From positions 159,468 through 223,467 of the forward strand of contig CAZUSA010000001.1 of assembly GCA_964622835.1 (NCBI GenBank): DNA of 64,000 nt, given 5' to 3'. Shown in pieces: positions 20,526 to 62,240 of this stretch. Numbering within the stretch: the stretch's first letter is position 1; each line of letters begins with the position of its first letter. A model generated the notes under the pieces. That model was given only the letters and a program-made list of their open reading frames with translations. It had not been told where the DNA came from and did not search any database. The position numbers and the translations under genes were made by a program. The DNA is from Candidatus Woesearchaeota archaeon (lineage in GTDB: Archaea > Nanobdellota > Nanobdellia > SCGC-AAA011-G17 > UBA489).

Positions 20526-20547
20526 CTTTAAATGTCACATCAAGCGG

Positions 20548-20623: not shown

Positions 20624-20639
20624 CATTCACACAAAAAAA

Positions 20640-22361: not shown

Positions 22362-24163
22362 AAACTGACGTATACATGAGAGACGTGTTCATCGGTCAAG
22401 TTGACGATGCTAATGCATTTGTTACAACCTTTAAGGAAGAGCGTCGTAAAGGAACGTTACCTGATACGGTTAATGTTGGTTTCAATAAAGATTTGAATGA
22501 AGTTGTTGTTGAAATTTCTAAGGGCCGTGCTCGACGTCCGTTGTTTATTGTTGATAAAGGTAAAAGTCTCTTTACAGAAGAGTACAAGAAGAAGTTATTG
22601 AGTAGTGAAATTAAGTGGGAAGATTTAGTGAAAGAAGGTATTGTTGAATATTTGGATGCTGCTGAAGAAGAGAATGCATTTGTTGCTATTAATGAAAAGG
22701 TCATTACTCCTGAAAATACACATGTTGAAGTGAGTCCTATTTTGATTATGGGATTGACAACATCGTTAGTACCATTTTCTAATTTTGGTCAGAGTGCACG
22801 TTTAAACAGAGGTTCTAAAGCACAAAAGCAGTCTCTTGGCATGTATGCTGCTAATTATTTGATTCGTATTGATACTGATTCTAATATTTTACATTATCCT
22901 TCTAATCCTATTGTAAGAACGTGTAATGCACAATTAGCTGGTCAAGAGAACCATCCTGCTGGACAAAATGTTGTTATTGCGTTGATGAGTTATGAAGGGT
23001 ATAACATGCAGGATGCGTTAATTGTTAATGGTGGTTCGCTCGCTCGTGGTTTAGCACGATCAACATACTTCAAGCCATATACTGTTGAAGAGTTACGCTA
23101 TTCTGGTGGGTTAACCGATAAGATTTGTGTTCCTGATAAGGATGTTAAAGGATATCGCGCTGAAACTGATTATAAATTATTAGAAGATGATGGTATTATT
23201 CATCCTGAAGCAACGATTACTGATGAAGATGTTATTATTGGTCGTACGTCTCCTCCTCGTTTCTTGGGTGAGATGGATGAGTTTAGTATTTCCGCTAATA
23301 AGATGCGAGATAGTTCTGTTACGATTAAACCTGGTGAACCGGGTAAGGTTGATTTGATTACGGTTACTGAAAATGAAGAAGGTAATCGATTAGTACAAAT
23401 TCGTATTCGTCACCAACGTATTCCTGAGATTGGTGATAAGTTTGCGTCCCGTCATGGTCAGAAGGGTGTTGTTGGATTAATTGTTCCTCAACAAGATATG
23501 CCGTTTACGTCTTCGGGTATTACGCCTGATTTAATTTTCTCCCCACATTCTATTCCTTCGCGTATGACTGTTTCTCATTTGATTGAGGCATTAGGCGGTA
23601 AAGCTGGTGCGTTAAAAGCAGAAAAGATTGATGCTACAGCATTTGCAAGTCAGTCTGAAGGAAGTTTACGTGAGATGTTGAAAGAGTGGGGCTTCCGTGA
23701 GAATGGTACGGAACGAATGATGAATGGTATTACTGGTGAAGAGTTTGAAGTGAAGATTTTCATTGGTAACATGTTTTACTTACGATTAAAGCACATGGTT
23801 GCAAATAAGTTACACGCTCGTGCTGCTGGTCGTATCCAATTACTTACACGCCAACCTATTGAGGGTCGTGCTAAGGGTGGAGGTCTTCGTTTAGGTGAAA
23901 TGGAGAAAGATTGTTTTGTAGCACATGGTGCATCATTATTATTGAAAGAACGATTTGATTCTGATAAGACGATTGTTCCTATTTGTAGTTCATGTGGTCT
24001 TATTGGTGTTGATGATGTCTTTAGAAAGAAGAAGTTCTGTCACCGATGTGGTGGTAATGTTGAGATTAATAATGTTGAAATGTCATATGCATTTAAGTTG
24101 TTAATGGATGAGATTCGATCGATGGGGGTTCTTCCAAGTATAAAGTTGAAAAATAAGTACTAA
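22358..24163 (+). CDS. rpoB1: RNA polymerase subunit B' (C-terminal half of RpoB)
   Basis: 601 aa. Motifs SRHGQKGV, PDLIFSPHSIPSRMT, GGLRLGEMEKD, and a C-terminal Zn ribbon CSSCG...CHRCG. Confidence 0.9.
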   Translation: MKTDVYMRDVFIGQVDDANAFVTTFKEERRKGTLPDTVNVGFNKDLNEVVVEISKGRARRPLFIVDKGKSLFTEEYKKKLLSSEIKWEDLVKEGIVEYLDAAEEENAFVAINEKVITPENTHVEVSPILIMGLTTSLVPFSNFGQSARLNRGSKAQKQSLGMYAANYLIRIDTDSNILHYPSNPIVRTCNAQLAGQENHPAGQNVVIALMSYEGYNMQDALIVNGGSLARGLARSTYFKPYTVEELRYSGGLTDKICVPDKDVKGYRAETDYKLLEDDGIIHPEATITDEDVIIGRTSPPRFLGEMDEFSISANKMRDSSVTIKPGEPGKVDLITVTENEEGNRLVQIRIRHQRIPEIGDKFASRHGQKGVVGLIVPQQDMPFTSSGITPDLIFSPHSIPSRMTVSHLIEALGGKAGALKAEKIDATAFASQSEGSLREMLKEWGFRENGTERMMNGITGEEFEVKIFIGNMFYLRLKHMVANKLHARAAGRIQLLTRQPIEGRAKGGGLRLGEMEKDCFVAHGASLLLKERFDSDKTIVPICSSCGLIGVDDVFRKKKFCHRCGGNVEINNVEMSYAFKLLMDEIRSMGVLPSIKLKNKY

Positions 24164-24164
24164 A

Positions 24165-26738: not shown

Positions 26739-27928
26739 TGACTGCTGATGTGTATTCGGATTTTGTAAAGAAGCTTCCTGGTAAGATTATTAATGATATG
26801 AAGCAAGAAGCGGCAAAGCGTAGTTTGAATGATTCGCAAGTGAAGAAGGTATTAGAGTATTTGGTTGAGCAGTATGATGCGGCTAAGATTAATCCGGGCG
26901 AAGCCATTGGTATTATTACTGCAGAATCATTTGGTGAACCGGGTACGCAGATGACATTGAATGTGTTCCACTTTGCAGGTGTAGCTGAAGTATCAGTAAC
27001 ACAGGGTCTTCCGCGTTTAATTGAAATTTTAGATGCACGTAAGACGATTAAAACACCGTCTATGATTATTCATTTGAAGAAAGATTTTGCTAAGGAAAAG
27101 AATAAAGTGCATGGTGTTGCTGCACAGATTAAAGAGACTGTTCTTGAGGAAATTTCTGAAGAGTTTAATATTAATTTGAGTAAAATGCAGTTAGATGTTA
27201 AAATTAACAAAGCTCGTATGCGTGAGATTAAGACGTCTGTTCCTGAGATCAGTGAAAAGTTACAAGAATCTCATAAGGGTATAAAGGTTCGTGCTACTGA
27301 TGATGGTTTTAGTGTAAAGATTGAGGGTGCTGAGAACGAATTGATGGAAATGTATAAGTTGAAAGAAAAACTTAAACAAACGTATATTAAAGGTGTTAAA
27401 GGCGTTGTTCATGTTTTACCTGTAAAAAACGGTGCTGAGTTTATGATTATTACAGCTGGTTCTAATTTAGCTGATGTTTTGGCTATTCCTGAAGTTGATG
27501 CGTCTCGTACGACAACGAATGATATTCACGAAACGGCTAAGGTCTTAGGTATTGAGGCTGCTCGTCAGATTATTATTAATGAAGCTGAAAAGGTTATTGA
27601 AGATCAAGGATTAGATGTGGATATTCGTCATATTTTATGCGTTGCTGATACAATGTGTCGTCATGGTGTTGTTAAGGGTATTACACGTTCGGGTATTACT
27701 GGTGAAAAGAAGTCAGTATTAGCAAAGGCATCGTTCGAAACACCGTTAACACATATTGTTAATGCGTCTATTATGGGTGAACGTGATGAATTAAATTCTG
27801 TTATTGAGAATGTTATGTTAAATCAACCGGTACCGTTAGGTACAGGTCTTCCAGACTTGGTTGCGAAGATGGGTCCTGGTTTAACAGGTAAAAAAACTAA
27901 AACAAAAGAGAAGAAGGAGAAAAAATGA
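26738..27928 (+). CDS. rpoA2: RNA polymerase subunit A''
   Basis: 396 aa. Conserved trigger-loop region TAESFGEPGTQMTLNVFHFAG. Confidence 0.9.
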   Translation: MTADVYSDFVKKLPGKIINDMKQEAAKRSLNDSQVKKVLEYLVEQYDAAKINPGEAIGIITAESFGEPGTQMTLNVFHFAGVAEVSVTQGLPRLIEILDARKTIKTPSMIIHLKKDFAKEKNKVHGVAAQIKETVLEEISEEFNINLSKMQLDVKINKARMREIKTSVPEISEKLQESHKGIKVRATDDGFSVKIEGAENELMEMYKLKEKLKQTYIKGVKGVVHVLPVKNGAEFMIITAGSNLADVLAIPEVDASRTTTNDIHETAKVLGIEAARQIIINEAEKVIEDQGLDVDIRHILCVADTMCRHGVVKGITRSGITGEKKSVLAKASFETPLTHIVNASIMGERDELNSVIENVMLNQPVPLGTGLPDLVAKMGPGLTGKKTKTKEKKEKK

Positions 27929-28179
27929 GTCTTGAAGATTTACGCGCGGCTATGAAGAAAGAGAAGTTAATATTTGGTACACAACAGACAATAAAAAATA
28001 TGAAGAATAAGCAAACGAAAGTTGTTTTTTTGGCAAGTAATTGTGGTGAAAAGATTGATGAAAGTATTCATTATTATGCGAAGGGCACAAAGATTAAAAT
28101 TATTAAATTGAGTAAGCCTCGTAGTGAGATTTCTATATTCTGTAAGAAAAACTTTCCTGTGAGTGTTATTAGTTATTAG
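27925..28179 (+). CDS. rpl30e: Ribosomal protein L30e
   Basis: 84 aa. GTQQTIKNMKNKQTKVVFLASNC pattern. Conserved position after rpoA''. Confidence 0.8.
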   Translation: MSLEDLRAAMKKEKLIFGTQQTIKNMKNKQTKVVFLASNCGEKIDESIHYYAKGTKIKIIKLSKPRSEISIFCKKNFPVSVISY

Positions 28180-28597
28180 AATGAAGACACGACAAAAGTT
28201 AGATATGCGTTTAATGGGTTTGGTCTCTATTTTTGAAGAGGTTACAAAGGTTAATGCTGTTGATTTTCTTGAGAATAAGGGTCAATTAGTGTTTCTTGTA
28301 AAAGAAGATGATGGCAAAAAAGCTGTTGGTAAAAATGGCATGCATGCAAAGAAGTTAACGTATCGGTTACAGAAGAAAGTGCGTATTATTGTTCTTTCTG
28401 CTGATGTAAAGACGTTTATTGAGCAAGTTATTCGCCCATTAGAACCGGTAGATATTGAAGATGATGGAATAACGTGTAAGATTAAGATGCGTTCTGTTGA
28501 GGAAAAGGCTCGACTAATTGGTCGTGGTGGGAGTAATATTGAGTTCTTGAAGGGTATGGTAGAACACCATTATAAGCGCAAGGTTATGGCTGTTTAA
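28163..28597 (+). CDS. nusA: Archaeal NusA (KH-domain transcription factor)
   Basis: 144 aa with two KH-like segments (GKNGMHAKKL, GRGGSNIEFLKG). Conserved position before S12. Confidence 0.75.
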   Translation: MLLVIRMKTRQKLDMRLMGLVSIFEEVTKVNAVDFLENKGQLVFLVKEDDGKKAVGKNGMHAKKLTYRLQKKVRIIVLSADVKTFIEQVIRPLEPVDIEDDGITCKIKMRSVEEKARLIGRGGSNIEFLKGMVEHHYKRKVMAV

Positions 28598-28626
28598 ATA
28601 GCCTCATACGCACTTTGAGACCATAA

Positions 28627-28638
28627 TCTTTATAAACC
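28627..28638 (+). promoter_or_regulatory. BRE/TATA element tctttataaacc upstream of S12
   Basis: Identical 12-mer upstream of EF-2 (30673-30684). About 30 bp from ATG 28661. Confidence 0.5.
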
Positions 28639-28660: not shown

Positions 28661-29098
28661 ATGGCAAAGAAATCACGTGGTCTAGGCGCTGGTAAGAAGT
28701 TAGCTGCGCGTAGAAACAAGTACAAATGGTCGCAACCGTTATACAAACGTAAGAAACGTGGTTTATATTGGAAGTCTAATCCGTTAGGTAAGTCTGCTCA
28801 AGCGAAAGGTATTGTTCTCGAAAAGCGTCAAGTTGAAGCTAAACAACCTAACTCTGCTATGCGTAAATGTGTTATTGTTCAATTAACCAAGAATGGTAAG
28901 AAGATTGGAGTGTTTGCTCCGGGTAATGAAGCGATTAAACGTATTGATGAACATGATGAAGTAATTGTTGAATGTATTGGTGGTAGTCGTGGTCGTTCGA
29001 AAGGTGATCTTCCTGGTATTCGTTGGCAAGTTATTAAAGTAAATGATCAAAGTTTAGATGCGTTATCCCGTGGTAAGATTGAGAAGGGTAGACGATGA
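28661..29098 (+). CDS. rps12: Ribosomal protein S12 (uS12)
   Basis: KGIVLEKRQVEAKQPNSAMRKCVIVQL. The ORF track gives a TTG start at 28652. Confidence 0.9.
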   Translation: MAKKSRGLGAGKKLAARRNKYKWSQPLYKRKKRGLYWKSNPLGKSAQAKGIVLEKRQVEAKQPNSAMRKCVIVQLTKNGKKIGVFAPGNEAIKRIDEHDEVIVECIGGSRGRSKGDLPGIRWQVIKVNDQSLDALSRGKIEKGRR

Positions 29099-29685
29099 AG
29101 TTATTCAACCAGTGGGAAACACAAGGCATTCAGATTACTGATGCTTCTTTGAAGCGAATGATCAATGTTCGTCCGGCGTTAATTGCTAAATCGCAAGGTC
29201 GTAATGCTTCACAACGGTTTTATCGAAGTAAGACAAATATTGTTGAGCGTTTAATTGCTCGTTTGATGGTTCCTGGTCATCGTGGGAAGAAACATAAGAC
29301 AACGTCAGGTAGATGTTCTGGTAAGTATATGACGTGTTCTCGTGTTGCTCGTGAGACATTACATTTGATTGAAGCGAAGACAAAGACAAATCCTATTCAA
29401 GTATTAGTAACTGCTATTGAGAATGCTGCTCCTCGTGAAGAGATTACGACGGTGGAGTATGGTGGTGCACGATATCCACAAGCAGTTGATTCTTCTCCTC
29501 AACGTCGTATTGATGTTGCATTACGTATTATGGTTCAAGGTGCATATCAAACATCGTTTGGTAAGAAAAAGAAGATGCGTGACGCATTAGCTGAAGAGAT
29601 TCTTGCTGCGTTTGCGATTGATCAAAAGAGTGCTGCTATTGCGAAGAAGTTAGAAATGGAACGTATGGCTGACGCTGCTCGTTAG
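29095..29685 (+). CDS. rps7: Ribosomal protein S7 (uS7)
   Basis: 196 aa. Conserved S7 fold. Sits after S12. Confidence 0.9.
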   Translation: MKLFNQWETQGIQITDASLKRMINVRPALIAKSQGRNASQRFYRSKTNIVERLIARLMVPGHRGKKHKTTSGRCSGKYMTCSRVARETLHLIEAKTKTNPIQVLVTAIENAAPREEITTVEYGGARYPQAVDSSPQRRIDVALRIMVQGAYQTSFGKKKKMRDALAEEILAAFAIDQKSAAIAKKLEMERMADAAR

Positions 29686-30216
29686 TTATTTTTTACTCAT
29701 CTTTTTCTTGGTAATCCATAAGAGTAACGCCAATTCTATACCTATAACGATGACACGTAATACTTTTGACATGTCACCAAAGTATCGTCCTGTGCTGTAG
29801 ATTAATAATAAGATTCCTCCAAACATGAAGCCACTACCAATGACTTCCATGGCATAAAATAATCCAAATAATATAGATGCTACAGCTAACGGTGTAATAA
29901 TAAAGAAGAGATTTCTGTTGTAGACTTCTTGCACGTCATGATATTCGTTGTAACAGGTATTGCATGTATCAAAGACACGACAACCATTCTCCATGGCATA
30001 TTCTGGAACACCTTTTTGTTGTTGACAGGTTTCAACGGCTGCTTCATCAATATCTGAACAATCTTCTGCTGGTGGTGTTAAGGGTTTTGGAGCGATGCGT
30101 TCTGTACAGTAATCATCATATTGTGGTTCTTCATAGATAGCATCAACAAGGAGTCCAACAAAAAGTGCTGCCATAATCGCAATGGCCAATGCCAGGAGTA
30201 ATTCTTTTGTTTTCAT
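29686..30216 (-). CDS. Hypothetical membrane protein with Cys-rich extracellular segment
   Basis: 176 aa. N-terminal TM, 8-Cys ectodomain, 2 C-terminal TM helices. Opposite strand, wedged between S7 and EF-2. Confidence 0.5.
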   Translation of the reverse strand: MKTKELLLALAIAIMAALFVGLLVDAIYEEPQYDDYCTERIAPKPLTPPAEDCSDIDEAAVETCQQQKGVPEYAMENGCRVFDTCNTCYNEYHDVQEVYNRNLFFIITPLAVASILFGLFYAMEVIGSGFMFGGILLLIYSTGRYFGDMSKVLRVIVIGIELALLLWITKKKMSKK

Positions 30217-30304
30217 GATGAATATTTACTTCTTCAAGCATTTATATGTTTTATGAACGAAAAGTATTTGAATAAGTTCGCACTCACAATGAGAGTAATA
30301 ACCT

Positions 30305-30640
30305 TTGGTGATAAAAACGATCAGACTTCGTGTCAGTTTGGATATGCTTACCGCAGATGGGTTTGGGCTGCTCGACCAACCAAAACAGGATATTTCTTTC
30401 AAACCATTACGCCAATCAATATTATTATTCAAACAACCAATAAAACCATTATTTCCTAAGCCCAGGTATGTTGGTACGCTTCGTGATGGAGAAGTGGATC
30501 ATATTGCAACGTATGAACAAAATGGAAGTCCAAGATTCTTTGATTTAGTACGTTACCATCCAGTTGGAAAACCTGATGAAGTGAGAACGGCAGCGGATTA
30601 CAGAAGAGCTTGGGAAGAAGCATCAAATGGATTAGAGTGA
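30305..30640 (+). CDS. Possible small hypothetical protein
   Basis: 111-aa ORF. Its C-terminal half (YVGTLRDGEVDHIATYEQNGSPRFFDLVRYHPVGKPDEV) looks protein-like. Local GC is slightly raised. No homology recognised. Confidence 0.25.
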   Translation: MVIKTIRLRVSLDMLTADGFGLLDQPKQDISFKPLRQSILLFKQPIKPLFPKPRYVGTLRDGEVDHIATYEQNGSPRFFDLVRYHPVGKPDEVRTAADYRRAWEEASNGLE

Positions 30641-30672
30641 GTACAGGCGAATAGCGTCTCTTCTTAGGAAAT

Positions 30673-30684
30673 CTTTATAAACCG
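30673..30684 (+). promoter_or_regulatory. BRE/TATA element tctttataaacc, 20-30 bp upstream of EF-2 ATG
   Basis: Same 12-mer as upstream of S12. Confidence 0.5.
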
Positions 30685-30703
30685 TTTTTTCACGCTTTAA
30701 ATT

Positions 30704-32902
30704 ATGGCGAAGGATATGGTAGAAAGCGTTAAAGACTTAATGCGTAAGCCAGAACAAATCCGTAACATCGCTATTTGTGCTCATATCGACCATGGTAAAA
30801 CGACGTTTTCTGATAATCTTCTTGCTGGTGCTGGCATGCTATCAGAGGAACATGCAGGTAAACAATTAGCGTTAGATTTCCATGATGATGAACAAGCGCG
30901 TGGTATTACGATTGATTCTTCAAGTGTTTCTATGGTGCACACTGTTGATGATAAAGAGCATTTAATTAATTTAATTGACACACCTGGTCACGTTGATTTT
31001 GGTGGTGACGTTACTCGTGCTATGAGAGCTGTTGATGGATGTATTGTATTATGTGATGCTGTTGAAGGTATTATGCCTCAAACTGAAACGGTATTACGGC
31101 AAGCATTACGTGAACATGTGAAGCCTATTTTATTCATTAACAAAGTTGATCGTTTAATTCGTGAAGTAAAACTTACTCCTGAAGCAATGCAGGAACGATT
31201 CCTCAAGATTATTGGTTCTGTTAATGAGTTCATGGATAAGATTGTTCCTCCTGAACATAAGGGTAAGTGGAAAGTTGCTGTGCAAGATGGTTCTGTTTGT
31301 TTTGGTTCTGCGTTCCACAATTGGGCAATGAGTGTTGATTATATGCAGAAGAAAAAGATTTCTTTCAAAGATATTATTGACCATTACCAAGATGAAGATG
31401 ATAATAAATACAAAGAACTTGCAAAATTAGCTCCTTTACATGAAGTGGTATTAGGATCTGTTATCAAACACTTACCTAATCCTGTTACAGCTCAAAAGTA
31501 TCGTATTCCTAATATTTGGCATGGCGATGGTGATTCACCTGAAGGTAAAGCAATTACTAATTGTGATCCTAATGGCGAACCTGCATTTGTTTGTGTTAAA
31601 ATTGTTATTGATCCCCACATGGGTGAAGTGGCAGCGGGACGTATGTTTTCAGGCACGATTAAACAAGGTCAAGAAGTATATTTGAATGGCGCTAAAAAAA
31701 GTGTTCGTGTACAACAAGTAAGTATTTACAAAGGTGCACAACGTATGCAGATGGATGAGGTTGTTGCAGGTAATATTGTGGGTATTTCTGGATTGAAAGG
31801 TATTTTCTCTGGTGAAACTGTTTCAAGTAAACCTATCGAACCATTCGAAGCTATTTCACATATTTTTGAACCGGTTGTTACAAAGTCTATTGAAGCAATG
31901 AAGTCTGCTGACTTACCTAAACTTATTGAAGTATTACGTAAAGTGACAAAAGAAGATCCTTCTATTAAGATTGAGATTGATGAAAAGACGGGTGAAAATT
32001 TAATGCATGGTATGGGTGAGTTACACTTAGAAGTTATTGAAAACCGTATTAAGTCTGAAAAGGGTGTTGAAGTTAAAACATCTCCTCCTATTGTTATCTA
32101 CCGTGAGTCTATTACAAAAGTATCTCCTGAAACGGAAGGAAAGTCTCCTAATAAACATAATAAGTTTTACATTATTGCTGAACCGTTAAATGAAAAAATT
32201 GTTGAAGCGATTAAGGACGGCATTATTCCTGAAGGTCGTGTTAAGAAGAATGATAAGGTCTTATATGAAAAGTTAGACAAAGTTGGTGTTCCTGTAAAAG
32301 AGGGTAAGAAAATTCGGGATATTTGTAATGGTAACATCTTAGTTGATGGTACACGTGGTATCGTTCATATTGGTGAAGTGCAAGAGTTAATCAATGAAGG
32401 GTTTGAACAAGTGATGAAGCAAGGTCCGTTAGCAAAAGAACCGGGTATTAGTATGAAAGTTACGGTTATGGATACGAAATTACACGAAGATGCTATTCAT
32501 CGCGGTCCTGCACAAGTATTACCTGCTGTTCGTGCTGCAGTAAAAGGTGCTATGACGCAAGCAACACCGGTTATGTTTGAGCCAATGCAGATTATTCAAA
32601 TTGACGCTCCTCATGAAAATATGGGTGATATGTCTGGTCTTATTTCTAATAAGCGTGGTCAATTACTTGAGATGAATCAAGAAGGTGATCAAATTGTGTT
32701 AAAGGCAAAGTTACCTGTTGCTGAAATGTTTGGTTTGAGTAATGAGATTCGTTCGATGACGTCTGGTCGAGGTAATTTCTTTTTGATTGATCAAGATTAT
32801 GAACGGTTACCACGTGAATTGCAACAAAAGATTATTACGTCTATTCGTAGTCGTAAAGGTTTGAAGGATGAAGACTTCAAAGAAGAAGGCGAAGAAGAAT
32901 AA
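30704..32902 (+). CDS. fusA: Elongation factor 2 (aEF-2)
   Basis: 732 aa. G-domain AHIDHGKTT, DTPGHVDF, NKVDR. C-terminal diphthamide region HRGPAQ. Confidence 0.95.
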   Translation: MAKDMVESVKDLMRKPEQIRNIAICAHIDHGKTTFSDNLLAGAGMLSEEHAGKQLALDFHDDEQARGITIDSSSVSMVHTVDDKEHLINLIDTPGHVDFGGDVTRAMRAVDGCIVLCDAVEGIMPQTETVLRQALREHVKPILFINKVDRLIREVKLTPEAMQERFLKIIGSVNEFMDKIVPPEHKGKWKVAVQDGSVCFGSAFHNWAMSVDYMQKKKISFKDIIDHYQDEDDNKYKELAKLAPLHEVVLGSVIKHLPNPVTAQKYRIPNIWHGDGDSPEGKAITNCDPNGEPAFVCVKIVIDPHMGEVAAGRMFSGTIKQGQEVYLNGAKKSVRVQQVSIYKGAQRMQMDEVVAGNIVGISGLKGIFSGETVSSKPIEPFEAISHIFEPVVTKSIEAMKSADLPKLIEVLRKVTKEDPSIKIEIDEKTGENLMHGMGELHLEVIENRIKSEKGVEVKTSPPIVIYRESITKVSPETEGKSPNKHNKFYIIAEPLNEKIVEAIKDGIIPEGRVKKNDKVLYEKLDKVGVPVKEGKKIRDICNGNILVDGTRGIVHIGEVQELINEGFEQVMKQGPLAKEPGISMKVTVMDTKLHEDAIHRGPAQVLPAVRAAVKGAMTQATPVMFEPMQIIQIDAPHENMGDMSGLISNKRGQLLEMNQEGDQIVLKAKLPVAEMFGLSNEIRSMTSGRGNFFLIDQDYERLPRELQQKIITSIRSRKGLKDEDFKEEGEEE

Positions 32903-32928
32903 AAGTATTCTATTTTTTTATTATGTAT

Positions 32929-33681
32929 CTAATCACTAGGGACGCCTGCTGCATTTGCAAAGGCCTGATTATCATAAAAAGATATTTTCACATTAGGTTC
33001 TGTTGGCCAGTAACCCTGAATGTAAGGAAAAGGTGATGCAAAAACAGTAAAAAATAGATTATCATCAAAATCTAAACTAATGTAACGCCCTGTTTGTGGT
33101 TCAATAAACACGGCACCGAGTGCACCATCAATAAGAACTGTAACAGCTGTATGTGCATAAAGAGGTTCTTGCGTTATTTCATCATAAACAACAAAATGTG
33201 CATATCCTGCGTTGTATCCTTTTTGCCATTCTAAAAATTGTTCTAAATCCGTAGCAAAATCATCGCAGTCATTGGTAACAGGTGTGTATGTCATACTTGC
33301 AACACCGCTTTCAGCAATATCTTGAGGCAACGTTGCAAGTGAAGGATGATCCTCTGGATTTACACCAACAGGAATAGGAATAAGTGTTCCAGAACTTACA
33401 GATGTATCATTATCAAAGGGAGTACAATGCTGTATTGCACCACCTTGTAATCGACATTGTTGTGCATTAATAGTAGAAAAACAGGTAGCATCAGGATGAC
33501 CATATACTCCTTGCGTACAACAGACAGTACTGCCAGGTGCGTGTGTTAAGGGTGGACTCGTTGTTGCTGTAGGCATGCGACCACCGCTAGGAGATATAAC
33601 AGTTTGTGCAAAAACCAATGAACTCATCATCAACATAACAAAGAGTAATACACTAAACCATTGGATAATATGTGATTTCAT
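32929..33681 (-). CDS. Hypothetical secreted protein
   Basis: 250 aa. Signal peptide MKSHIIQWFSVLLFVMLMMSSLVFAQT. Thr/Pro-rich linker and a Cys-containing domain. Confidence 0.5.
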   Translation of the reverse strand: MKSHIIQWFSVLLFVMLMMSSLVFAQTVISPSGGRMPTATTSPPLTHAPGSTVCCTQGVYGHPDATCFSTINAQQCRLQGGAIQHCTPFDNDTSVSSGTLIPIPVGVNPEDHPSLATLPQDIAESGVASMTYTPVTNDCDDFATDLEQFLEWQKGYNAGYAHFVVYDEITQEPLYAHTAVTVLIDGALGAVFIEPQTGRYISLDFDDNLFFTVFASPFPYIQGYWPTEPNVKISFYDNQAFANAAGVPSD

Positions 33682-33876
33682 GATTAGTAATTAGCCTCTT
33701 CAAATGAATGGAATGAGTAGGATATTCTATTTATAAATCTATATGATAAATTACCATAAAAAGCCTTTAGAGGCCCTTAAAGAGATATAGCTCACAAAAA
33801 GAGCCAAAAATAAGATTTATATACTAGAGTATACACATGAAATGTCTGAAAAAGAGTCCATTCTCTGAAAAATATC

Positions 33877-35295
33877 ATGGCAGAACACTACACGAGTGGA
33901 AGTGGAGAAACACATCAAGTGTATGCACCAACAAGACGTAGATTGATAGCTGTTGCTGGTCTTGTGGGGTTAACATTAGCTTCCCCACTTGCTCGCGCTT
34001 CACAAGTTGCAAATGTACTTGTAAAAAGTGATCCAAAAATATCAAAAACCAATGATGAAAATAGTCGTGAAAAACAAACTGATTTAGAACATAAATTACA
34101 ATCGGACCTGCAAGCCATTTATATGGATACTGAAGGATTTCTACAACAATTAGATAAACAAAAGTATAAAAAATTATCAAAAGATGAAATGCAAGCAGAA
34201 GCAAAATATTTGACAGAGTTATCCCTTCATATGGGAATGCCTCATCTGAGAGGGTTATTATGGTATCATGCATGTGAAAGATTAGATACACAAGCAGTCT
34301 TAGATACCTTAGTTAAACATATTACACCTCCCGAAGAAGAGAGGATAACAGCATTCGAAGAAGGGTATGCATTTGAAGGAGTGGGTTTGATAGGTTGTGG
34401 CTCATCAAAAAAAGTAACTAAAGAACAACGCAAAGCACTTGCAGAGGTACTACAACCAAGAAAAGGCGTGCCAGACTATATTAACATTTCAGCATTACGT
34501 GCAGGAGCTCTTGTTGGACAAACGTATAAAAAGGAAGAACAAAAAGCATTACTTGAAAAATATTATAGATATCTTGAAGAAGCTGTTAAAGAACCGCACC
34601 AATTAGATCTCAGAGAGACAGAAGAAACACATATATCAGACCACACTTTAGAACATTTGTTGTGGACGTGTGGAAGCATGGACGGTATAGGTGGTTTACA
34701 AGATGAATTAAGAGACAGAAAACTTACAAAAGATAATAGAATAAAAAAAATATTAGACAGTGGCGAACCAATTCCAACCTTTAAAACCGTAAGAGATCCA
34801 TTGAAAAATTTATATGATGCCTGGAAAGATCATGGAAAAAGGCAAAGAAAAAGAAATACATGGGGTTCTGTTAAGATAGCAGGTAAAGAGGATTACGAAG
34901 ATAATTTTAGAACAATGATGGATGCTACACGTAGCGATATTAAACATTTTTTACAAGTAGTTGCAAAAACAATAAGTTTGGGAGAAATAACTGGCATGTC
35001 TGGAAATGCAAGCCCTGGTTCAAGAACAATTCGCCTACCAACAAACCTACTTAAAACAAGAGACCCGAAAGGTTTGGTAGCTTCATTAACACACGAAGCA
35101 ACACATCTTTTGGATGTGATTTATGGCACATACCAAGAAGGAAAACCATCCCACTACAAAGAAGAATCACCATTTGTAACAGCTATCACTACAGAGAACA
35201 TCATGGACCAATCAAAACACTCACCTAGTGCAAGTATACTACACAATAGATTAATTCGTAAATTAAAAAAACAACACTGGAAAAAACACTGGTAA
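33877..35295 (+). CDS. Hypothetical protein with twin-arginine-like signal (TRRRLIAVAGLVG...ARAS) and HExxH motif
   Basis: 472 aa. RR motif followed by a hydrophobic stretch and AxA. LTHEATHLLD is an HExxH; a Glu sits 14 residues after the second His (gluzincin-like spacing?). Otherwise unrecognised. Confidence 0.5.
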   Translation: MAEHYTSGSGETHQVYAPTRRRLIAVAGLVGLTLASPLARASQVANVLVKSDPKISKTNDENSREKQTDLEHKLQSDLQAIYMDTEGFLQQLDKQKYKKLSKDEMQAEAKYLTELSLHMGMPHLRGLLWYHACERLDTQAVLDTLVKHITPPEEERITAFEEGYAFEGVGLIGCGSSKKVTKEQRKALAEVLQPRKGVPDYINISALRAGALVGQTYKKEEQKALLEKYYRYLEEAVKEPHQLDLRETEETHISDHTLEHLLWTCGSMDGIGGLQDELRDRKLTKDNRIKKILDSGEPIPTFKTVRDPLKNLYDAWKDHGKRQRKRNTWGSVKIAGKEDYEDNFRTMMDATRSDIKHFLQVVAKTISLGEITGMSGNASPGSRTIRLPTNLLKTRDPKGLVASLTHEATHLLDVIYGTYQEGKPSHYKEESPFVTAITTENIMDQSKHSPSASILHNRLIRKLKKQHWKKHW

Positions 35296-35312
35296 CAATA
35301 AACTTCTAAAAA

Positions 35313-38111
35313 TTAAATTGGTGTTGAAGGAGGACCATTACCAGGTCCAGGTCCATCACCACCTCCACTTTTTTTACCACCACATGCACAACAACTTATT
35401 GGATCTGTAGGATTACCAAAACCACCTGCACAGAAACCAACACCATCAGAACAGAAATCTGTACAATCTGCATCAGATACACATTCAGGCCTATTACCAC
35501 AAGTACTTGTAATTTCATCACCTGGTTCAACAATAATAGGACCACCACCACCACCAGTATCATCTGGTGGATCTGGAGGTATACCGGGACATTGGTTGTT
35601 CCAACCATCACACTCACACGCTGTACCTGAACAATCAGGCGGTACGCCTGTCGGTTTGTCACCATCACCTATACAACCATTGGTGGGATCACCACAATTA
35701 GGACTACAACATACAGGGTCAGGCGGGATATTACAATTAACCTGTGGGGGTCCGCCAAGTTGGATGCACTCTGATGTGTCACAAAACTCACAGGTACTTA
35801 CATCATATGCAGAACAGTCATTATTACACTGCAAAACACCATTACACAATTGTACAACGCCTTGTAATAAAAAGTCATTACAGTTATTACCGAGGGTATC
35901 TGTTGGCGGTGTACCACTAAATGCACCAGGATCGCATACTTCCCCTGGTTCTATTTGGCCATTCCCACAAACAGATGGAGGCGGAGGTGTTCCTGATAAT
36001 GTACAATCATTATTACAACCATCATTATTGTTACCATTTCCATCATCACATTGTTCACCAAATTCTATAACACCATTACCACATCCAGGTACGACAATTA
36101 TTTTTTTTGTTGAAACTACATCTTTTAATCCCGCGTAATAGCCATATTGGCCAGTGATTGCAGGAGGGTAAACATCACAGTGTTTTGCTGTTCCACTGTT
36201 TGCTTGATAACCACATATTTGTGTACCAATGCACGTTTCAGTAGCAGTATTATAGCCTGAGTTATCACATATTTTTACAGTCCCTTTCAGATAGGTATTG
36301 GGATACCAGTTTGTTTCCCAGATACTTGCTTTTGTAAAAGAACCAGGTTGCACGGTATAAGTTGTCATTTTCAAAGTTAACGTTGTATATGTACAATCTG
36401 CATCACAACCGGTTATTCCATCATTGATAGTGTCACCATCATCACAGTGTTCTGCTCCTTCTATAACACCATTCCCACATATTCCAGGACCGCCTTCTGT
36501 TTGACAGCTACTGTCACAGCCATCGCCGTTTGCTGTATTCCCATCATCGCATGTTTCACCTGCTTCAAGAACATTATTTCCGCAGGCACCAATAACACCG
36601 CATGTACAATCTATTTGACAGTATCCTGGACAAGCAGTATCATCTGCTCCATCACATTGTTCGCCACCTGCTGGTTCATAATTATTATTACCACAAAAGT
36701 AGGTTCCGCCAAAGTTACACACAGTGTTATCTGTTGAATCATAATCACATGCATCTCCACAACTGTCGCCGTCTGCGTTTGCTTGGTTGGGTGGTGTGCT
36801 ACATTTTTCTACAAGAACACCATTAGTTGTTTTTCCCGCACAATCTGCATTGCTGGTACAAACAATGTCTGCATCAAAGGGATTGAGACTTGGATCAGGA
36901 TTGGATGATGTACTAACAGTTACACAGGTTCCTTTCAAGACACCGTTGGGATGGAGTGGACAATTATCTAGCCCAGGACAACTACCCCCTGGTAAACAAT
37001 TTCCTAAACCGTCTCCGTCTGCATCATCAGGACCATAACAGGTACATAAACTAGTACAACTGGATAGTCCACAAAGAGCATCATCTGCTCCATCACATTG
37101 TTCACCGTTACTTGTTTCTTGTATACCGTTACCGCAAATGTTTGCACCAACACATGCACTGTCACCATCACATGCACTATCTGCACAGTCTGTTAGGCCA
37201 TTACAATTATTATCTTTGGTGTCTCCACATGTTGTTGGGAAACTTACACCTTCACCAGCTAGTGTATTAATCTGATCATTAGTGTCATCGCAGTCTACGT
37301 TACCACATGATGAACTGTAGAAGTATTCTTCTCCATCACCATCTGCATCACACGTGTTACAAACACCTAAACTACAGTATTCTCCACTGTCACAATCACT
37401 ATCACTTTCACATCCTAAACAAATACCTGATCCACTTGAAGTATCGCAGTTACCATAGGGACAGTCACCGTCAACGGTACAACTAAAAGAACATGCACCA
37501 TCACTGCCAGGTAGACCGCATCCTATGAGTGCAGGGTCCACAGGATTGCTATCATACACACAAAAGTTATCATCGTCACATGTTGCAGTATATCCTGCGG
37601 TCATGTCTTGACAGTCACTTGCGTCATCACAGTATTCACATTGTTCGCCACCAGTAACTAATCCATCGCCACATTCTTGGAAAACAATTTGTCCGTTGGT
37701 TCCATCATTAAAGAGTGTTAAATAGTGAATACCTTTATTTAATAAAAAGTCTAAACTGCCACCGACGAAATAATCCATTTCAAATTGGTCGACTGTTCCA
37801 CCGTAATTTATGGTAATGACTTTACATTGTGTTGTGCCATCTGAGAGTGCATCTGTACATTGATCGAACTGTGCACTTTCTATGTTAGGAACATTAACAA
37901 CAATGGTATCCGAACTACCACTGCCTAAATTACTTAATGATTCAACGACGTTATCTAGTGTATTAACAGTATCGGTCATATAGGGACTTTGTGTTTTCCC
38001 TTGGGATAAGAAGAATAACAGCGGTATGAGAAGAACAAGAATAATTCCCGTAAGAACCATTTGTTCGGTTGCTGCTTGCGCTCGTCGCGCACTACCCCTT
38101 TTGCGAACCAT
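35313..38111 (-). CDS. Giant Cys-rich repeat surface protein with pilin-like class III signal peptide
   Basis: 932 aa. N-terminus KRGSARRAQAATEQMVLTGIILVLLIPLLFF parallels the RGQAAMEFLMTYGWALLVV of the pilins. At least 4 Myxococcus-type repeats (CGNNVLEAGETCDDGNTANGDGCDSSC, CGNGVIEGAEHCDDGD, CGNGVIEFGEQCDDGNGNNNDGC, CGNGQIEPGEVCD). Thrombospondin-3-like Asp-rich Ca-binding stretches (DADGDGEEY). About 13% Cys. Confidence 0.75.
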   Translation of the reverse strand: MVRKRGSARRAQAATEQMVLTGIILVLLIPLLFFLSQGKTQSPYMTDTVNTLDNVVESLSNLGSGSSDTIVVNVPNIESAQFDQCTDALSDGTTQCKVITINYGGTVDQFEMDYFVGGSLDFLLNKGIHYLTLFNDGTNGQIVFQECGDGLVTGGEQCEYCDDASDCQDMTAGYTATCDDDNFCVYDSNPVDPALIGCGLPGSDGACSFSCTVDGDCPYGNCDTSSGSGICLGCESDSDCDSGEYCSLGVCNTCDADGDGEEYFYSSSCGNVDCDDTNDQINTLAGEGVSFPTTCGDTKDNNCNGLTDCADSACDGDSACVGANICGNGIQETSNGEQCDGADDALCGLSSCTSLCTCYGPDDADGDGLGNCLPGGSCPGLDNCPLHPNGVLKGTCVTVSTSSNPDPSLNPFDADIVCTSNADCAGKTTNGVLVEKCSTPPNQANADGDSCGDACDYDSTDNTVCNFGGTYFCGNNNYEPAGGEQCDGADDTACPGYCQIDCTCGVIGACGNNVLEAGETCDDGNTANGDGCDSSCQTEGGPGICGNGVIEGAEHCDDGDTINDGITGCDADCTYTTLTLKMTTYTVQPGSFTKASIWETNWYPNTYLKGTVKICDNSGYNTATETCIGTQICGYQANSGTAKHCDVYPPAITGQYGYYAGLKDVVSTKKIIVVPGCGNGVIEFGEQCDDGNGNNNDGCNNDCTLSGTPPPPSVCGNGQIEPGEVCDPGAFSGTPPTDTLGNNCNDFLLQGVVQLCNGVLQCNNDCSAYDVSTCEFCDTSECIQLGGPPQVNCNIPPDPVCCSPNCGDPTNGCIGDGDKPTGVPPDCSGTACECDGWNNQCPGIPPDPPDDTGGGGGPIIVEPGDEITSTCGNRPECVSDADCTDFCSDGVGFCAGGFGNPTDPISCCACGGKKSGGGDGPGPGNGPPSTPI

Positions 38112-38193
38112 GTATCTATTTCATGATCAAATTCATTTAAAAAGGTTGAGGTCTAGGTGGTTGTAAGAATACTCTCGAGAAAGCCTACCACAA

Positions 38194-38206
38194 GCTTTAT
38201 AAATCG
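38194..38206 (+). promoter_or_regulatory. BRE/TATA-like gctttataaatcg upstream of EF-1alpha
   Basis: Same ctttataaa core as the other operon-internal promoters. Confidence 0.4.
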
Positions 38207-38255
38207 TTTTCAGGTTACGATTCATACGCACTCAAGGGAGTAATATTACAATAAA

Positions 38256-39542
38256 ATGGCAAAAGAAAAACCGCATATGAATGTTATTTTCGTCGGTCAT
38301 GTTGACCACGGAAAATCGACGACTGTAGGTCGCCTCATGTTTGATTCAGGTAACGTAGATGAGCAGGCTATGAGAAAGTTAAAGGAAAAAGCGCAAGAAC
38401 TTGGTAAAGCTGGGTTTGAGTTTGCGTTTGTTATGGATAATCTTAAGGAAGAGCAAGAACGTGGCGTTACGATTGATCTTTCATACAAGAAGTATATGTC
38501 CCAAAAATATGAAGCAACGATTATTGATGCTCCTGGGCACAGAGATTTTGTTAAAAATATGATTACTGGTTCATCCCAAGCTGATGTTGCATTTTTAGTT
38601 GTTGCAGCTACTGAAGGGGTTATGGAACAAACGAAAGAACACTTATGGTTACTAAAAACACTTGGTGTTAGCCAAATTTGTGTGTTAGTTAACAAGATGG
38701 ATACCGTGAAGTACGATGAAGCGAAATTCAAGGAAGTACAAGAAGGTATTACAAAGTTAATTAAGACTGCTGGATATGATCCTGCAAAGGTTACCTTTAT
38801 TGCTGGTAGCGCTTTACAAGGGGATAATATTTTCAAGAAATCTGAAAACATGAGTTGGTACACAGGTCCAACCGTTGGTGAGCAGATTGATAAGTTCGAC
38901 GAACCGGAAAAACCAAAGGATTTACCTTTGCGTTTACCAATTCAGGATGTGTATAACATTTCTGGTATTGGTGTTGTTCCTGTTGGCCGTGTTGAAACGG
39001 GTACGATGAAGGTTGGACAAAAGATTGTCTTCGTTCCTGGCCGTGAAGGGAAAGGCGTTCCTGGTGAAGTCAAGTCTATTGAAATGCACCATGAACAAGT
39101 TCAAGAAGCTATTCCTGGTGACAACATTGGATTTAACGTTCGTGGTATTGGTAAGAAAGATATTGCACGTGGTGACGTCCTTGGTGACGCTGCAAACCCA
39201 CCGACGATTGTTAGTGAGTTTACTGCTCGTGTGATGATTTTGAATCATCCTACTGTTGTAACACAAGGCTATACGCCGGTGTTCCACATCCATACAGCAC
39301 AAGTTGCCTGTCAATTTTCTGCATTAAAGCAGCAATTAGATCCTGCAACCGGTGACGTTCTGAAGGAAAACCCAGACACCTTAAAGACAGGTGACGCTGC
39401 AGTTATCCAGATGATACCAACGAGACCAGTTGTTATTGAAAAGTTTAGTGAGATTCCTCAAATGTCGAAGTTCGCTATTCGTGATGCTGGTGCAACCGTT
39501 GCTGCTGGTATGTGTATTGATTCTGTAAAGAAAACAGCCTAG
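38256..39542 (+). CDS. tuf: Elongation factor 1-alpha (aEF-1A)
   Basis: 428 aa. [21 protein letters not shown]. Confidence 0.95.
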
Positions 39543-39620: not shown

Positions 39621-39633
39621 AACCTTATAAACC
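39621..39633 (+). promoter_or_regulatory. TATA element ccttataaacc, 30 bp upstream of S10 ATG
   Basis: Spacing to ATG 39656 fits a leaderless or short-leader archaeal mRNA. Confidence 0.45.
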
Positions 39634-39655: not shown

Positions 39656-39964
39656 ATGGCAAAGGCACGTATTAATATTGCAAGTACAAATATTACGCAG
39701 TTAAATCAGATCTGTAGTGATATTACTGATATTGCTAAATCAACAAAAACAAAGATGTCTGGTCCTATTCCGTTACCAACACAAATTCTTAAACACACGA
39801 CTCGTCGTAGTCCCTGTGGTGATGGTAAGGCTACGTGGGATAATTTTCAAATGCGTATTCACAAACGTCTTATTGATTTAGCTGACAATGAACGAGCATT
39901 ACGGTTTGTTATGAGAGTCCCTATTCCAAAAGAAGTGGATATTGAAATTGAGTTATTAGAATAA
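39656..39964 (+). CDS. rps10: Ribosomal protein S10 (uS10)
   Basis: MAKARINIAS...IPKEVDIEIELLE. The ORF track starts at 39593; ATG 39656 gives the canonical about 102-aa S10. Confidence 0.9.
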   Translation: MAKARINIASTNITQLNQICSDITDIAKSTKTKMSGPIPLPTQILKHTTRRSPCGDGKATWDNFQMRIHKRLIDLADNERALRFVMRVPIPKEVDIEIELLE

Positions 39965-40459: not shown

Positions 40460-41182
40460 TTGAGAAAAGACATATATGTCTCAAAGAGATTATATGATAT
40501 GGATTTTTCAATACGAAATAAACAAAATGTAGAGAGTAGGTGGAGAAAGGTTCATGAAAAAGAAAGAGCATACATTAGAGATAATAAAGAAAAGACAAAG
40601 CATTTTAGGGCAAGAATATGTGGATTTTTAGCAGGAGATGGGAATCTCCTTATTGCAGGAAAAAACAACAAACACCATAACACAGTACGATTTTTTCCAG
40701 ACCATCATTCACTAATAAAACCATATATCGAGGCTACATTAAAGGTCTACAATAAAAAACCAAAAATAATAAAGAAGAAAAATTATTATTGTTTAAATAT
40801 TGATTCAAAACCAATGGTTGAGGATATTTTATCTACAACAACGTTAGGAACCAGCACATGGAGTATTCCAAAAAGTTTGAAAAGTAATAATGAAAAAATT
40901 GAGTGGTTACGAGCGTTCTTTGATGCTGAAGCCTATGTTCATCAAAAATATATCAGAGTTCAATCAGTGAATGGAGAGGGATTAAAAGAAGTAAAAGAGC
41001 TATTAGGAGACTTGAACATATATTCAAAGATTTACGAATATATGCCTAAACAAAAAAATCATAAAAAAGTCTATATGCTAACAATAATAAGAAAAAAGGA
41101 TAAGTTACATTATAAGTCCCTCATAGGATTTAACCATACAACAAAACTTAAAAAGCTAAATTTTACACTTCAAACAAGATAA
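40460..41182 (+). CDS. Free-standing double-motif LAGLIDADG homing endonuclease
   Basis: 240 aa. Motif 1 ICGFLAGDGNLLIA. Motif 2 LRAFFDAEAYVHQ. Lys-rich. Stop is 4 nt before the tRNA at 41187. Confidence 0.75.
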   Translation: MRKDIYVSKRLYDMDFSIRNKQNVESRWRKVHEKERAYIRDNKEKTKHFRARICGFLAGDGNLLIAGKNNKHHNTVRFFPDHHSLIKPYIEATLKVYNKKPKIIKKKNYYCLNIDSKPMVEDILSTTTLGTSTWSIPKSLKSNNEKIEWLRAFFDAEAYVHQKYIRVQSVNGEGLKEVKELLGDLNIYSKIYEYMPKQKNHKKVYMLTIIRKKDKLHYKSLIGFNHTTKLKKLNFTLQTR

Positions 41183-51725: not shown

Positions 51726-51734
51726 ATGCAGAAA

Positions 51735-51990: not shown

Positions 51991-52075
51991 CTGCAAGTTT
52001 CTAAGAGAAAGTGTGGTATTTAAACTATGTGATAGCTAAGAAATATTTAAATAGAAATAGATAGAAAGAAAAACT

Positions 52076-62223: not shown

Positions 62224-62240
62224 AACATTTCAACTATAAT

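Follow-up and report, generated by a model that had tools for sequence, protein, structure and literature searches.

How do genes for membrane and secreted proteins come to stand among the RNA polymerase, ribosomal protein and elongation factor genes of an archaeon, and is such an arrangement out of the ordinary? Here, we analysed a stretch of 64,000 nucleotides from a Candidatus Woesearchaeota archaeon (the window), in which an earlier note had seen the gene string from rpoH to S10 interrupted twice by such genes. Gene order and strands proved to be as described, and profile matches confirmed the ORFs: rpoH-rpoB''-rpoB'-rpoA'-rpoA''-L30e-NusA-S12-S7, EF-2 and EF-1alpha-S10 lie on the + strand (identities via NCBIfam or Pfam), and the string is broken at S7|EF-2 by one gene, M176, and at EF-2|EF-1alpha by three, S250, T472 and G932, which fill a gap of 5353 bp. 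The observation is real but mostly ordinary, as relatives share the arrangement and interruptions of this cluster are common throughout the lineage. The genes are as follows.

20640-20879, + strand, rpoH (NCBIfam equivalog)
20880-22361, + strand, rpoB'' (NCBIfam equivalog)
22358-24163, + strand, rpoB' (NCBIfam equivalog)
24165-26738, + strand, rpoA' (NCBIfam equivalog)
26738-27928, + strand, rpoA'' (NCBIfam equivalog)
27925-28179, + strand, L30e (NCBIfam equivalog)
28181-28597, + strand, NusA-like (NCBIfam equivalog)
28661-29098, + strand, S12 (NCBIfam/Pfam)
29095-29685, + strand, S7 (NCBIfam/Pfam)
29686-30216, - strand, M176, a 176-aa membrane protein between S7 and EF-2
30344-30640, + strand, 98-aa ORF in the M176/EF-2 spacer
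30704-32902, + strand, EF-2 (aEF-2; Pfam)
32929-33681, - strand, S250, 250 aa, 6 Cys, Sec-type signal peptide
33877-35295, + strand, T472, 472 aa, HEATH at residues 406-410, signal-like N-terminus that contains RRR
35313-38111, - strand, G932, 932 aa with 90 Cys (9.7%), divergent from EF-1alpha
38256-39542, + strand, EF-1alpha (NCBIfam/Pfam)
39656-39964, + strand, S10, 102 aa counted from the ATG

The part from rpoH through the NusA-like gene (20640-28597) is the unbroken upstream portion of the cluster, with genes close-packed or overlapping, and S12 and S7 overlap by 4 nt. The likely starts of S12 and S10 are ATG 28661 and ATG 39656, rather than TTG and GTG codons upstream. Gene set and order are those of the archaeal rpo-str/L30e-EF cluster (PMC10833476), and contiguity is lost, as it is in relatives of the same clade. 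To call this cluster a universally conserved operon was an overstatement: the position of EF-2 and the EF-1alpha-S10 linkage vary among archaea, fusA is treated as optional in the string, one thaumarchaeon and one DPANN archaeon are reported to have EF1a-S10-fusA away from it, and Asgard archaea to have a split cluster (PMC10833476). What sets the window apart from that cluster is that lineage-specific genes for membrane and secreted proteins, mostly on the opposite strand, occupy its junctions, whereas the string of the cited DPANN genome AR10 is contiguous. A further likeness is to bacterial transcription/translation operon arrays, long conserved arrays of independently promoted operons with insertions between rather than inside operons; however, domain, promoter and terminator logic differ, and the bacterial str operon S12-S7-EF-G-EF-Tu is normally intact, whereas the window breaks at S7|EF-2 and EF-2|EF-1alpha. 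Directly past S10 the window carries a LAGLIDADG gene, with homologs past S10 in the related loci L052, L018 and L069.

S12, EF-2, EF-1alpha and S10 had each been credited with an exact promoter box of their own. This held for the first three; S10 is preceded by a variant.

28628-28636, + strand, CTTTATAAA TATA-like box, 33 nt 5' of the S12 ATG
30673-30681, + strand, CTTTATAAA box, 31 nt 5' of the EF-2 ATG
38195-38203, + strand, CTTTATAAA box, 61 nt 5' of the EF-1alpha ATG, within the 144-bp divergent intergenic region
39623-39631, + strand, CCTTATAAA box (one mismatch to CTTTATAAA), 33 nt 5' of the S10 ATG

The boxes of S12, EF-1alpha and S10 belong to a common 19-nt family (CCAYAAnCYTTATAAAYC). 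The segment with the EF-2 box is kept in relatives L058, L076 and L077, and EF-2 of L034 has CCTTATAAA at the matching position. M176 has a ATATAAAT box about 30 nt 5' of its ATG, and G932 a TTTTTAAA box on the other strand, also about 30 nt 5' of its ATG and distinct from the EF-1alpha box; the layout of boxes between EF-1alpha and the G932-family gene in L034 matches that of the window. Exact CTTTATAAA matches number five in the window versus 1.75 expected, a count reached in 5 of 100 shuffles, which taken alone is weak evidence. Each of the five is, however, correctly oriented and stands 23-61 nt 5' of a start codon. Past the S7 stop there is a T6 run, past EF-2 a T7 run, and past EF-1alpha a long T-rich stretch. 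The internal TATA-like boxes and T-runs, together with the antisense orientation of three of the four intervening genes, argue against a single operon from S12 to S10. In our reading, S12-S7, EF-2, EF-1alpha and S10 are predicted to form independent transcription units; against this, transcription may read through from S7 or EF-2 over the antisense genes. In L002 and L003, S7 and EF-2 are only 17 bp apart, with an SD-like GGTGA and no TATA box in between, which is consistent with co-transcription as the ancestral state.

The gene at the S7|EF-2 junction differs from its earlier description as a protein with an 8-Cys ectodomain. M176 has six Cys, all of them invariant across its family and including a CxxC pair; an N-terminal TM helix is followed by an ectodomain of about 70 aa, which carries these Cys, and three more TM helices. 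The family is restricted to Woesearchaeota, and in more distant members of the phylum it occupies other genomic sites. An assignment to the DsbB/VKOR-type membrane thiol oxidoreductases was rejected, as M176 does not unite a 4-TM bundle and CxxC pair with a fold or sequence like that of DsbB or VKOR. The spacer between M176 and EF-2 measures 487 bp, and its 98-aa ORF, a called gene in the JGI contig, is doubtful as a real gene, with no family match and no homologs in 77 related loci.

Within the EF-2|EF-1alpha block, S250 is an orphan, for which neither the relatives nor Pfam, NCBIfam or PDB yielded a homolog. T472 has positional orthologs in L034 and L001 that are 25-26% identical, and H406, E407, H410, H426, E429 and E430 are invariant across the three positional orthologs, which provides the conserved HExxH and downstream third ligand of a zincin. 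Among peptidase families the best match was SprT-like (E=0.021, under threshold); a profile search of the PDB matched no known structure, with Spartan best at E=1.7, and no homologs were found among the 5.8 G or 1.84 G proteins searched. The N-terminus, set against the Tat motif S/T-R-R-x-F-L-K, reads T-R-R-R-L-I-A in the window and G-R-R-G-F-L-K in L001, and is Sec-like without RR in L034. We consider T472 a putative secreted zinc metallopeptidase.

G932 consists of a class-III-signal-like N-terminus, a conserved N-domain of about 145 aa and Cys-rich acidic repeats, and its gene carries internal DNA repeats. The protein repeats match TIGR02232 in four stretches with 57.1 bits (cutoff 20.8) and DUF4215 with 27.0 (gathering score 27). 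Its N-terminus reads RRA|QAATEQMVLTGIILVLLIPLLFF, with Q12, L20, G22 and L25 invariant among nine orthologs; G932 and its orthologs share an invariant G/A-Q after a short basic stretch, followed by a hydrophobic segment of about 20 residues, and G932 thus has the short basic stretch, G/A at -1 and hydrophobic segment of a class III signal. Pfam PF04021 (Class_IIIsignal) left the window protein unmatched and gave the L004 ortholog 17.4 bits, below the cutoff of 23.7. Archaeal type IV pilus components include large adhesin-like proteins with multiple conserved cysteines (PMC4858521, citing Szabo et al. 2007), and G932 resembles such class III signal proteins that are not major pilins in N-terminus, large size and Cys richness; in contrast to them, its neighbourhood (29686-38255) does not encode a pilus assembly ATPase, a TadC or a prepilin peptidase. 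Its predicted fold is too uncertain to be set against pilins or archaellins. Compared with TIGR02232 (myxo_disulf_rpt)/DUF4215 repeat proteins, G932 differs in having the repeats fused to a pilin-type N-terminus, and in an archaeon. Similar pilin-like and Cys-rich genes also occur in the window far away from translation genes.

A comparison of synteny had been proposed as a check, and close relatives turned out to carry the same inserted gene families in the same positions, which is largely the outcome that the earlier note had set against its own proposal. An M176 homolog follows S7 or stands beside EF-2 in six to seven contigs of related Woesearchaeota, whose EF-2 is 81-90% identical, lying between S7 and EF-2 in L034, L004, L058, L076 and L077 and adjoining EF-2 in L001. 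A G932-family gene points away from EF-1alpha in L034, L004, L076 and L077, and in the same orientation in L001 at the contig end. This divergent pair, with 144-180 bp between the genes, is kept in at least five genomes whose EF-2 proteins are 81-90% identical, while the G932 family itself is 42-55% identical across them. Against L034, T472 is 25% and the G932 N-domain about 42% identical, in comparison to 90% for both EF-2 and EF-1alpha. In the EF-2 tree, all loci with the shared M176/G932/T472 arrangement fall in one clade, and in the outgroup L052 only 127 bp separate EF-2 from EF-1alpha. Gene content inside the block turns over among clade relatives and is protease- and surface-themed: the protease-type gene adjoining EF-2 encodes a Peptidase_S8 in L004, L058, L076 and L077, but an HExxH protein in L034, L001 and the window. 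The M176-EF-2 interval varies as well. L004 has a LAGLIDADG-like ORF there, L001 an MNT-type nucleotidyltransferase, and L058 and L077 have giant subtilases, whereas the window has nothing but the doubtful ORF.

Across the phylum, the arrangement loses the unusual character first ascribed to it. In a crude survey of 70 Woesearchaeota loci (ATG-only greedy ORFs, a hydropathy window as the signal/TM test, and MAG contigs possibly skewed towards easily assembled regions), with a junction of more than 300 bp taken as open, S7|EF-2 was open in 21 of 26 loci and EF-2|EF-1alpha in 31 of 47; EF genes with a transcription or location of their own were, moreover, already known in archaea. S7 was absent from the 10 kb upstream of EF-2 in many loci. 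The gap genes are functionally mixed, with Peptidase_M50, glycosyltransferases, YbjQ, Na/H exchanger and MsrA among them, and membrane, secreted or Cys-rich proteins make up 27% of them versus 24% of flanking genes (p=0.40). The proposed insertion hotspot for symbiosis factors is weakly supported: it can draw on the turnover and the protease/surface theme of the clade block, and not on any phylum-wide enrichment. In the window itself, every one of the four residents encodes a membrane or secreted protein, compared with about 37% of the other genes (chance about 2%); together with the protease- and surface-themed relatives, this suggests that junction content in this clade may be non-neutral.

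An artefact of assembly or binning that joined surface genes to translation genes has a negligible probability. Repeat-rich Cys-rich genes do break assemblies, and the JGI contig stops inside G932, as the L002, L003 and L058 contigs stop in Cys-rich or subtilase genes soon past EF-2. However, the arrangement is found in at least three independent assemblies that agree (the JGI 18.9-kb, the ENA 46.5-kb and a 293-kb contig, the ENA G932 being identical at 931 of 932 positions), and at least six related MAGs from separate studies have a matching one, which refutes the chimera that had been raised as a possibility. We also consider it very unlikely that mobile or selfish DNA, such as LAGLIDADG homing endonucleases and toxin-antitoxin cassettes, swaps cargo here in ongoing horizontal turnover. 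The variable M176-EF-2 content of close relatives, the restriction of S250 to the window and the LAGLIDADG genes past S10 would fit such activity, but the anchor genes (M176, the G932 and T472 families) are vertically shared, gaps across the phylum are filled by ordinary genes, and the composition check found the inserted genes native, with GC3 of 0.20-0.31, where the window averages 0.258 +/- 0.047, and codon distances of 0.11-0.18, where it averages 0.158 +/- 0.040. The block has no integrase or transposase, direct or inverted repeats do not bracket it, and its borders lack a tRNA; with its native composition, a genomic island or integrated mobile element was rejected. The native composition points to a fixed arrangement at the level of the clade rather than a recent insertion.

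A different account would have the surface module selected to lie beside EF-2 and EF-1alpha for high, growth-coupled expression, through shared or interfering divergent promoters or local chromatin. The G932-family/EF-1alpha pair persists despite the divergence of the giant gene, a protease-type gene adjoins EF-2 in every clade locus, and the residents are uniformly membrane or secreted; the tight divergent pairing could reflect regulatory coupling. Nevertheless, we regard this account as unlikely: each gene has a TATA-like box of its own, that of G932 lying apart from that of EF-1alpha, more distant Woesearchaeota have EF-2 and EF-1alpha adjacent or unrelated housekeeping genes in the gap, M176 is located elsewhere in other family members, and genes similar to G932 stand in the window far from translation genes. 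It is quite unlikely, too, that the genes from S7 to EF-1alpha form a clade-specific host-contact module (HExxH or subtilase protease, Cys-rich adhesin with a pilin signal, M176), held by selection for growth-coupled expression while its interior diversifies rapidly, possibly aided by free-standing LAGLIDADG endonucleases.

In the reading that we prefer, at a probability of roughly 0.7, separately promoted units follow one another, with permissive junctions and clade-ancestral surface and protease residents. The rpo-str-EF string would then consist of rpoH through NusA, S12-S7, EF-2, EF-1alpha and S10 as separate units rather than one operon, and their order would be retained by descent rather than by co-transcription, so that unit boundaries would take in other genes harmlessly. 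The common ancestor of the window's clade would have gained resident genes at these boundaries: the conserved 4-TM, 6-Cys M176 between S7 and EF-2, and between EF-2 and EF-1alpha a putative cell-surface block, with one gene for a putative secreted protease and another for a Cys-rich protein that bears a pilin-type signal. These residents have TATA-like boxes of their own and native codon usage, and the inside of the block changes from relative to relative. In symbiotic DPANN/Nanoarchaeota, hypothetical surface proteins and components of type IV pili are reported to have the highest densities of non-synonymous SNPs (PMC6142677), in a population-genetic study of Nanoarchaeota proper. The likeness lies in surface proteins whose divergence far outpaces that of the remaining genome, and the putative surface genes of this clade, too, evolve extremely fast.

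The core genes of the archaeal rpo-str-EF string lie on the + strand in the order rpoH to S10, as confirmed by ORF listing, Pfam and NCBIfam. Four resident genes, called here M176, S250, T472 and G932 after the lengths of their products in amino acids, interrupt this string. M176 immediately abuts the S7 stop, and the other three occupy the 5353 bp between EF-2 and EF-1alpha. The presence of surface and membrane genes between S7, EF-2 and EF-1alpha, as described in the earlier note, was thus confirmed by the same searches.

Core genes (ORF listing, Pfam/NCBIfam) and resident genes of the window
20640-20879, +, rpoH
20880-22361, +, rpoB''
22358-24163, +, rpoB'
24165-26738, +, rpoA'
26738-27928, +, rpoA''
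27925-28179, +, L30e
28181-28597, +, NusA-like
28661-29098, +, S12
29095-29685, +, S7
29686-30216, -, M176 (176 aa)
30704-32902, +, EF-2
32929-33681, -, S250
33877-35295, +, T472
35313-38111, -, G932
38256-39542, +, EF-1alpha
39656-39964, +, S10

A 98-aa ORF in the spacer between M176 and EF-2 (30344-30640) is a doubtful gene; it showed no conservation in the related loci compared, and Rfam detected no RNA family in this spacer. Directly upstream of rpoH there are three tRNA genes (20100-20225, 20454-20526 and 20548-20624), the first of which probably contains an intron, since this 126-nt gene is detected by Rfam and missed by ARAGORN. Further downstream, the window carries an archaeal SRP RNA (51726-51996, -, 117.7 bits) and a 103-aa ORF (45739-46050, -) made nearly entirely of Arg/Lys/Thr/Ala repeats (ARKTVRKA...), possibly coding for a very basic protein that binds nucleic acids, or else spurious. 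EF-2 relatives, the best of them MAGs with 83-90% identity and several from Saanich Inlet, place the source organism in Woesearchaeota, a lineage assigned by GTDB to the DPANN group Nanoarchaeota.

An assembly artefact was rejected because independent assemblies agree with the window: the arrangement recurs in the JGI contig L071, and an ENA contig assembled separately carries G932 with 931/932 identity. We also rejected an origin as a genomic island or mobile element. The GC3 of the resident genes is 0.20-0.31 (window mean 0.258 +/- 0.047) and their codon-usage distance is 0.11-0.18 (0.158 +/- 0.040), so that the deviation for which the earlier note proposed a check was not found and codon usage is native; the higher overall GC of G932 is due to its Gly/Cys/Pro/Asp-rich composition. 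At the borders of the block no integrase, flanking repeats or tRNA were found. The resident genes do not look like a recent insertion. In several contigs the sequence stops within the Cys-rich gene or subtilase gene that follows EF-2 (L002, 12200-13114; L003; L058, 9414-10730; L071), and such repeat-rich surface genes at the junctions are frequent assembly breakpoints beside key phylogenetic marker genes.

The string had also been proposed to consist of separately promoted units, and the transcript boundaries predicted from sequence agree with this. S12, EF-2 and EF-1alpha are preceded by an exact CTTTATAAA, 33, 31 and 61 nt before their respective ATGs, and S10 by the box CCTTATAAA, 33 nt before its ATG. 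The count of exact CTTTATAAA in the window is by itself not impressive (5, with 1.75 expected, and 5/100 shuffles reach 5). All five matches are correctly oriented and precede a start codon by 23-61 nt, a 19-nt context is common to the S12, EF-1alpha and S10 copies, and the related locus L034 has the same boxes in the same places. The four residents also have their own TATA-like boxes, and T runs follow the stops of S7, EF-2 and EF-1alpha. Because of these boxes and T runs, separate initiation and termination of the S12-S7, EF-2, EF-1alpha and S10 units is plausible. An 11-mer, TCATACGCACT, occurs upstream of the S12 TATA box (28604-28614) and in the putative EF-1alpha 5' leader (38222-38232); it is absent at the EF-1alpha site of L034.

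We compared 70 EF-2 loci of GTDB species representatives and the further contigs L071, L076 and L077, using tblastn and ORF maps. Within the clade formed by the window and relatives with 81-90% identical EF-2, the same genes recur at the same positions for M176 and the G932 family. An M176 homolog lies between S7 and EF-2 in L034, L004, L058, L076 and L077 and adjoins EF-2 in L001, and a gene of the G932 family is oriented away from EF-1alpha in L034, L004, L076 and L077 and stands at the contig end in L001. In every clade case EF-2 is abutted by a protease-type gene; the window, L034 and L001 have an HExxH-family member here, and L004, L058, L076 and L077 a Peptidase_S8. Two loci, L002 and L003, are without M176 at this site, S7 and EF-2 being 17 bp apart with an SD-like sequence, and still have a minus-strand Cys-rich gene after EF-2. 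Since both are nested inside the clade in the EF-2 NJ tree, their state would most simply reflect secondary loss or relocation. The distance between EF-2 and EF-1alpha is 127 bp in the outgroup L052 (EF-2 72% identical).

The interior of the block is variable, with S250 in the window only, giant subtilases in L058 and L077, and, in the gap between M176 and EF-2, a LAGLIDADG-like ORF in L004 (3282-4475) and an MNT-type nucleotidyltransferase in L001. Free-standing genes of the LAGLIDADG homing-endonuclease-like type are found around the cluster, one directly after S10 in the window (40460-41182, +), whose homologs likewise follow S10 in three further Woesearchaeota (L052:14566-15237, L018:10019-10702, L069:22550-23002). 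Another, at 61687-62223 (+), adjoins a tRNA-Leu at 62240.

M176 consists of an N-terminal TM helix, an ectodomain of ~70 aa and three further TM helices. It has six cysteines, and not the eight attributed to it before. Its family comprises ~35 sequence clusters (P0002-P0036), all unnamed and all on Woesearchaeota-type contigs, with invariant C37, C53, C64, C79, C85 and C88 (C85/C88 forming a CxxC pair) and a conserved RYFxDMSK loop. The genomic location differs between lineages, the gene being elsewhere in more distant genomes. The AlphaFold model (pLDDT 73.6) structurally matched generic helical bundles only. We flag this Woesearchaeota-wide membrane family with six invariant cysteines as uncharacterised. 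S250 has a Sec-type signal peptide and 6 Cys; no relative was detected in Pfam, NCBIfam, PDB or the 77 loci.

T472 has a signal-like N-terminus with RRR and a HEATH motif at residues 406-410. Searches of a word-indexed 5.8 G database and a full HMMER scan of 1.84 G representatives returned T472 alone, and no significant match came from searching PDB with a profile of the 3-ortholog alignment. Positional orthologs are present in L034 (461 aa) and L001 (445 aa), with 25-26% identity, and H406, E407, H410, H426, E429 and E430 are kept in both. A SprT-like match below threshold (E=0.021) is the sole hint of a family. Taken together, the conserved HExxH-region residues and this hint make a putative secreted zinc metallopeptidase a reasonable reading. 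L001 has a good twin-arginine motif (RRGFLK), and L034 has none. Ortholog identity of ~25% in genomes with 88-90% identical EF-2 amounts to an extreme contrast of rates inside a single syntenic block.

G932, with 90 Cys in 932 aa, matches the cysteine-rich acidic repeat TIGR02232 (57.1 bits, cutoff 20.8) and only just reaches DUF4215. Over the first ~330 residues, identity to orthologs is 42-55%. In 9/9 aligned sequences the N-terminus runs from a basic stretch through an invariant [G/A]-Q into a hydrophobic segment of ~20 residues, as archaeal class III (prepilin-type) signal peptides do (PMC4858521); the model of the N-domain used for comparison with the pilin fold had low confidence. Compared with L034, T472 is 25% and the G932 N-domain ~42% identical, and EF-2 and EF-1alpha 90%; this rapid divergence fits that reported for surface proteins of Nanoarchaeota (PMC6142677).

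By the crude hydropathy heuristic also used in our gap survey, 15/40 other non-core ORFs of the window have a hydrophobic N-terminus, among them a second Cys-rich giant and three further proteins with a pilin signal. Tandem ~615-aa paralogs immediately upstream of the rpoH region (14845-16689 and 16652-18505, both -, ORFs overlapping by 38 nt) have near-identical class-III-signal-like N-termini (GQAAMEFLMTYGWALLVV) and LamG/ConA-like domains; a 156-aa pilin-like gene (5904-6374, +) shares this N-terminus. Since the second giant (54544-57372, -, 942 aa, 72 Cys, DUF4215 sub-threshold) and a 760-aa signal-peptide protein with CGNN..GE.CD repeats (2625-4907, -) lie away from the EF region, such surface genes are common in the genome and not EF-specific.

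In the 70-locus set, S7 and EF-2 are more than 300 bp apart in 21/26 cases (median 1.4 kb, maximum 7 kb), EF-2 and EF-1alpha in 31/47 (maximum 9.4 kb) and EF-1alpha and S10 in 14/36. The NusA-S12 junction is mostly tight, and many loci have no S7 within 10 kb of EF-2. Variation of the EF part of the archaeal str/L30e cluster has already been published (PMC10833476), and bacterial equivalents are reported to be interrupted by multigene insertions between operons. The interpretation in the earlier note is borne out in part: its separately promoted units are supported, its unusual architecture is not. With crude ORF calling and the hydropathy heuristic, gap ORFs (n=148) were not enriched over flanking ORFs (n=627) in membrane/secreted (27% vs 24%, p=0.40) or Cys-rich proteins (24% vs 22%), and a phylum-wide surface-gene hotspot was not found; the suggested hotspot for symbiosis factors is weakly supported, within the clade only. 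The Pfam content of the gaps is mixed, including glycosyltransferases, YbjQ, Na/H exchanger, MsrA, regulators and others, with Peptidase_M50 the commonest (9 members, 9 loci). In another subclade (L010, L011, L013, L015, L016, L027, L035, L053) the S7-EF-2 gap holds a ~190-aa minus-strand ORF, probably a Peptidase_M50 member; if so, subclades differ in their fixed residents at this junction.

The reading best supported by the data takes the string as a chain of independently promoted units whose order would be kept by descent and whose junctions would be permissive in the Woesearchaeota lineage. The clade ancestor would have fixed a particular set of residents, of which the surface and protease genes went on to diverge very fast. 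It is less likely that the position of the residents was selected for growth-coupled expression, or that selfish elements actively target the junctions.

None of these results overturns current views of archaeal genome organisation. Contiguity of the rpo-str-EF string is not to be assumed in Woesearchaeota, which matters to annotators and to marker-gene or synteny-based binning. Positional orthologs among the residents form a well-anchored set of very fast-evolving predicted surface proteins (25-45% identical vs 90% for flanking genes), usable for following how putative host-contact proteins diversify in uncultured DPANN archaea.
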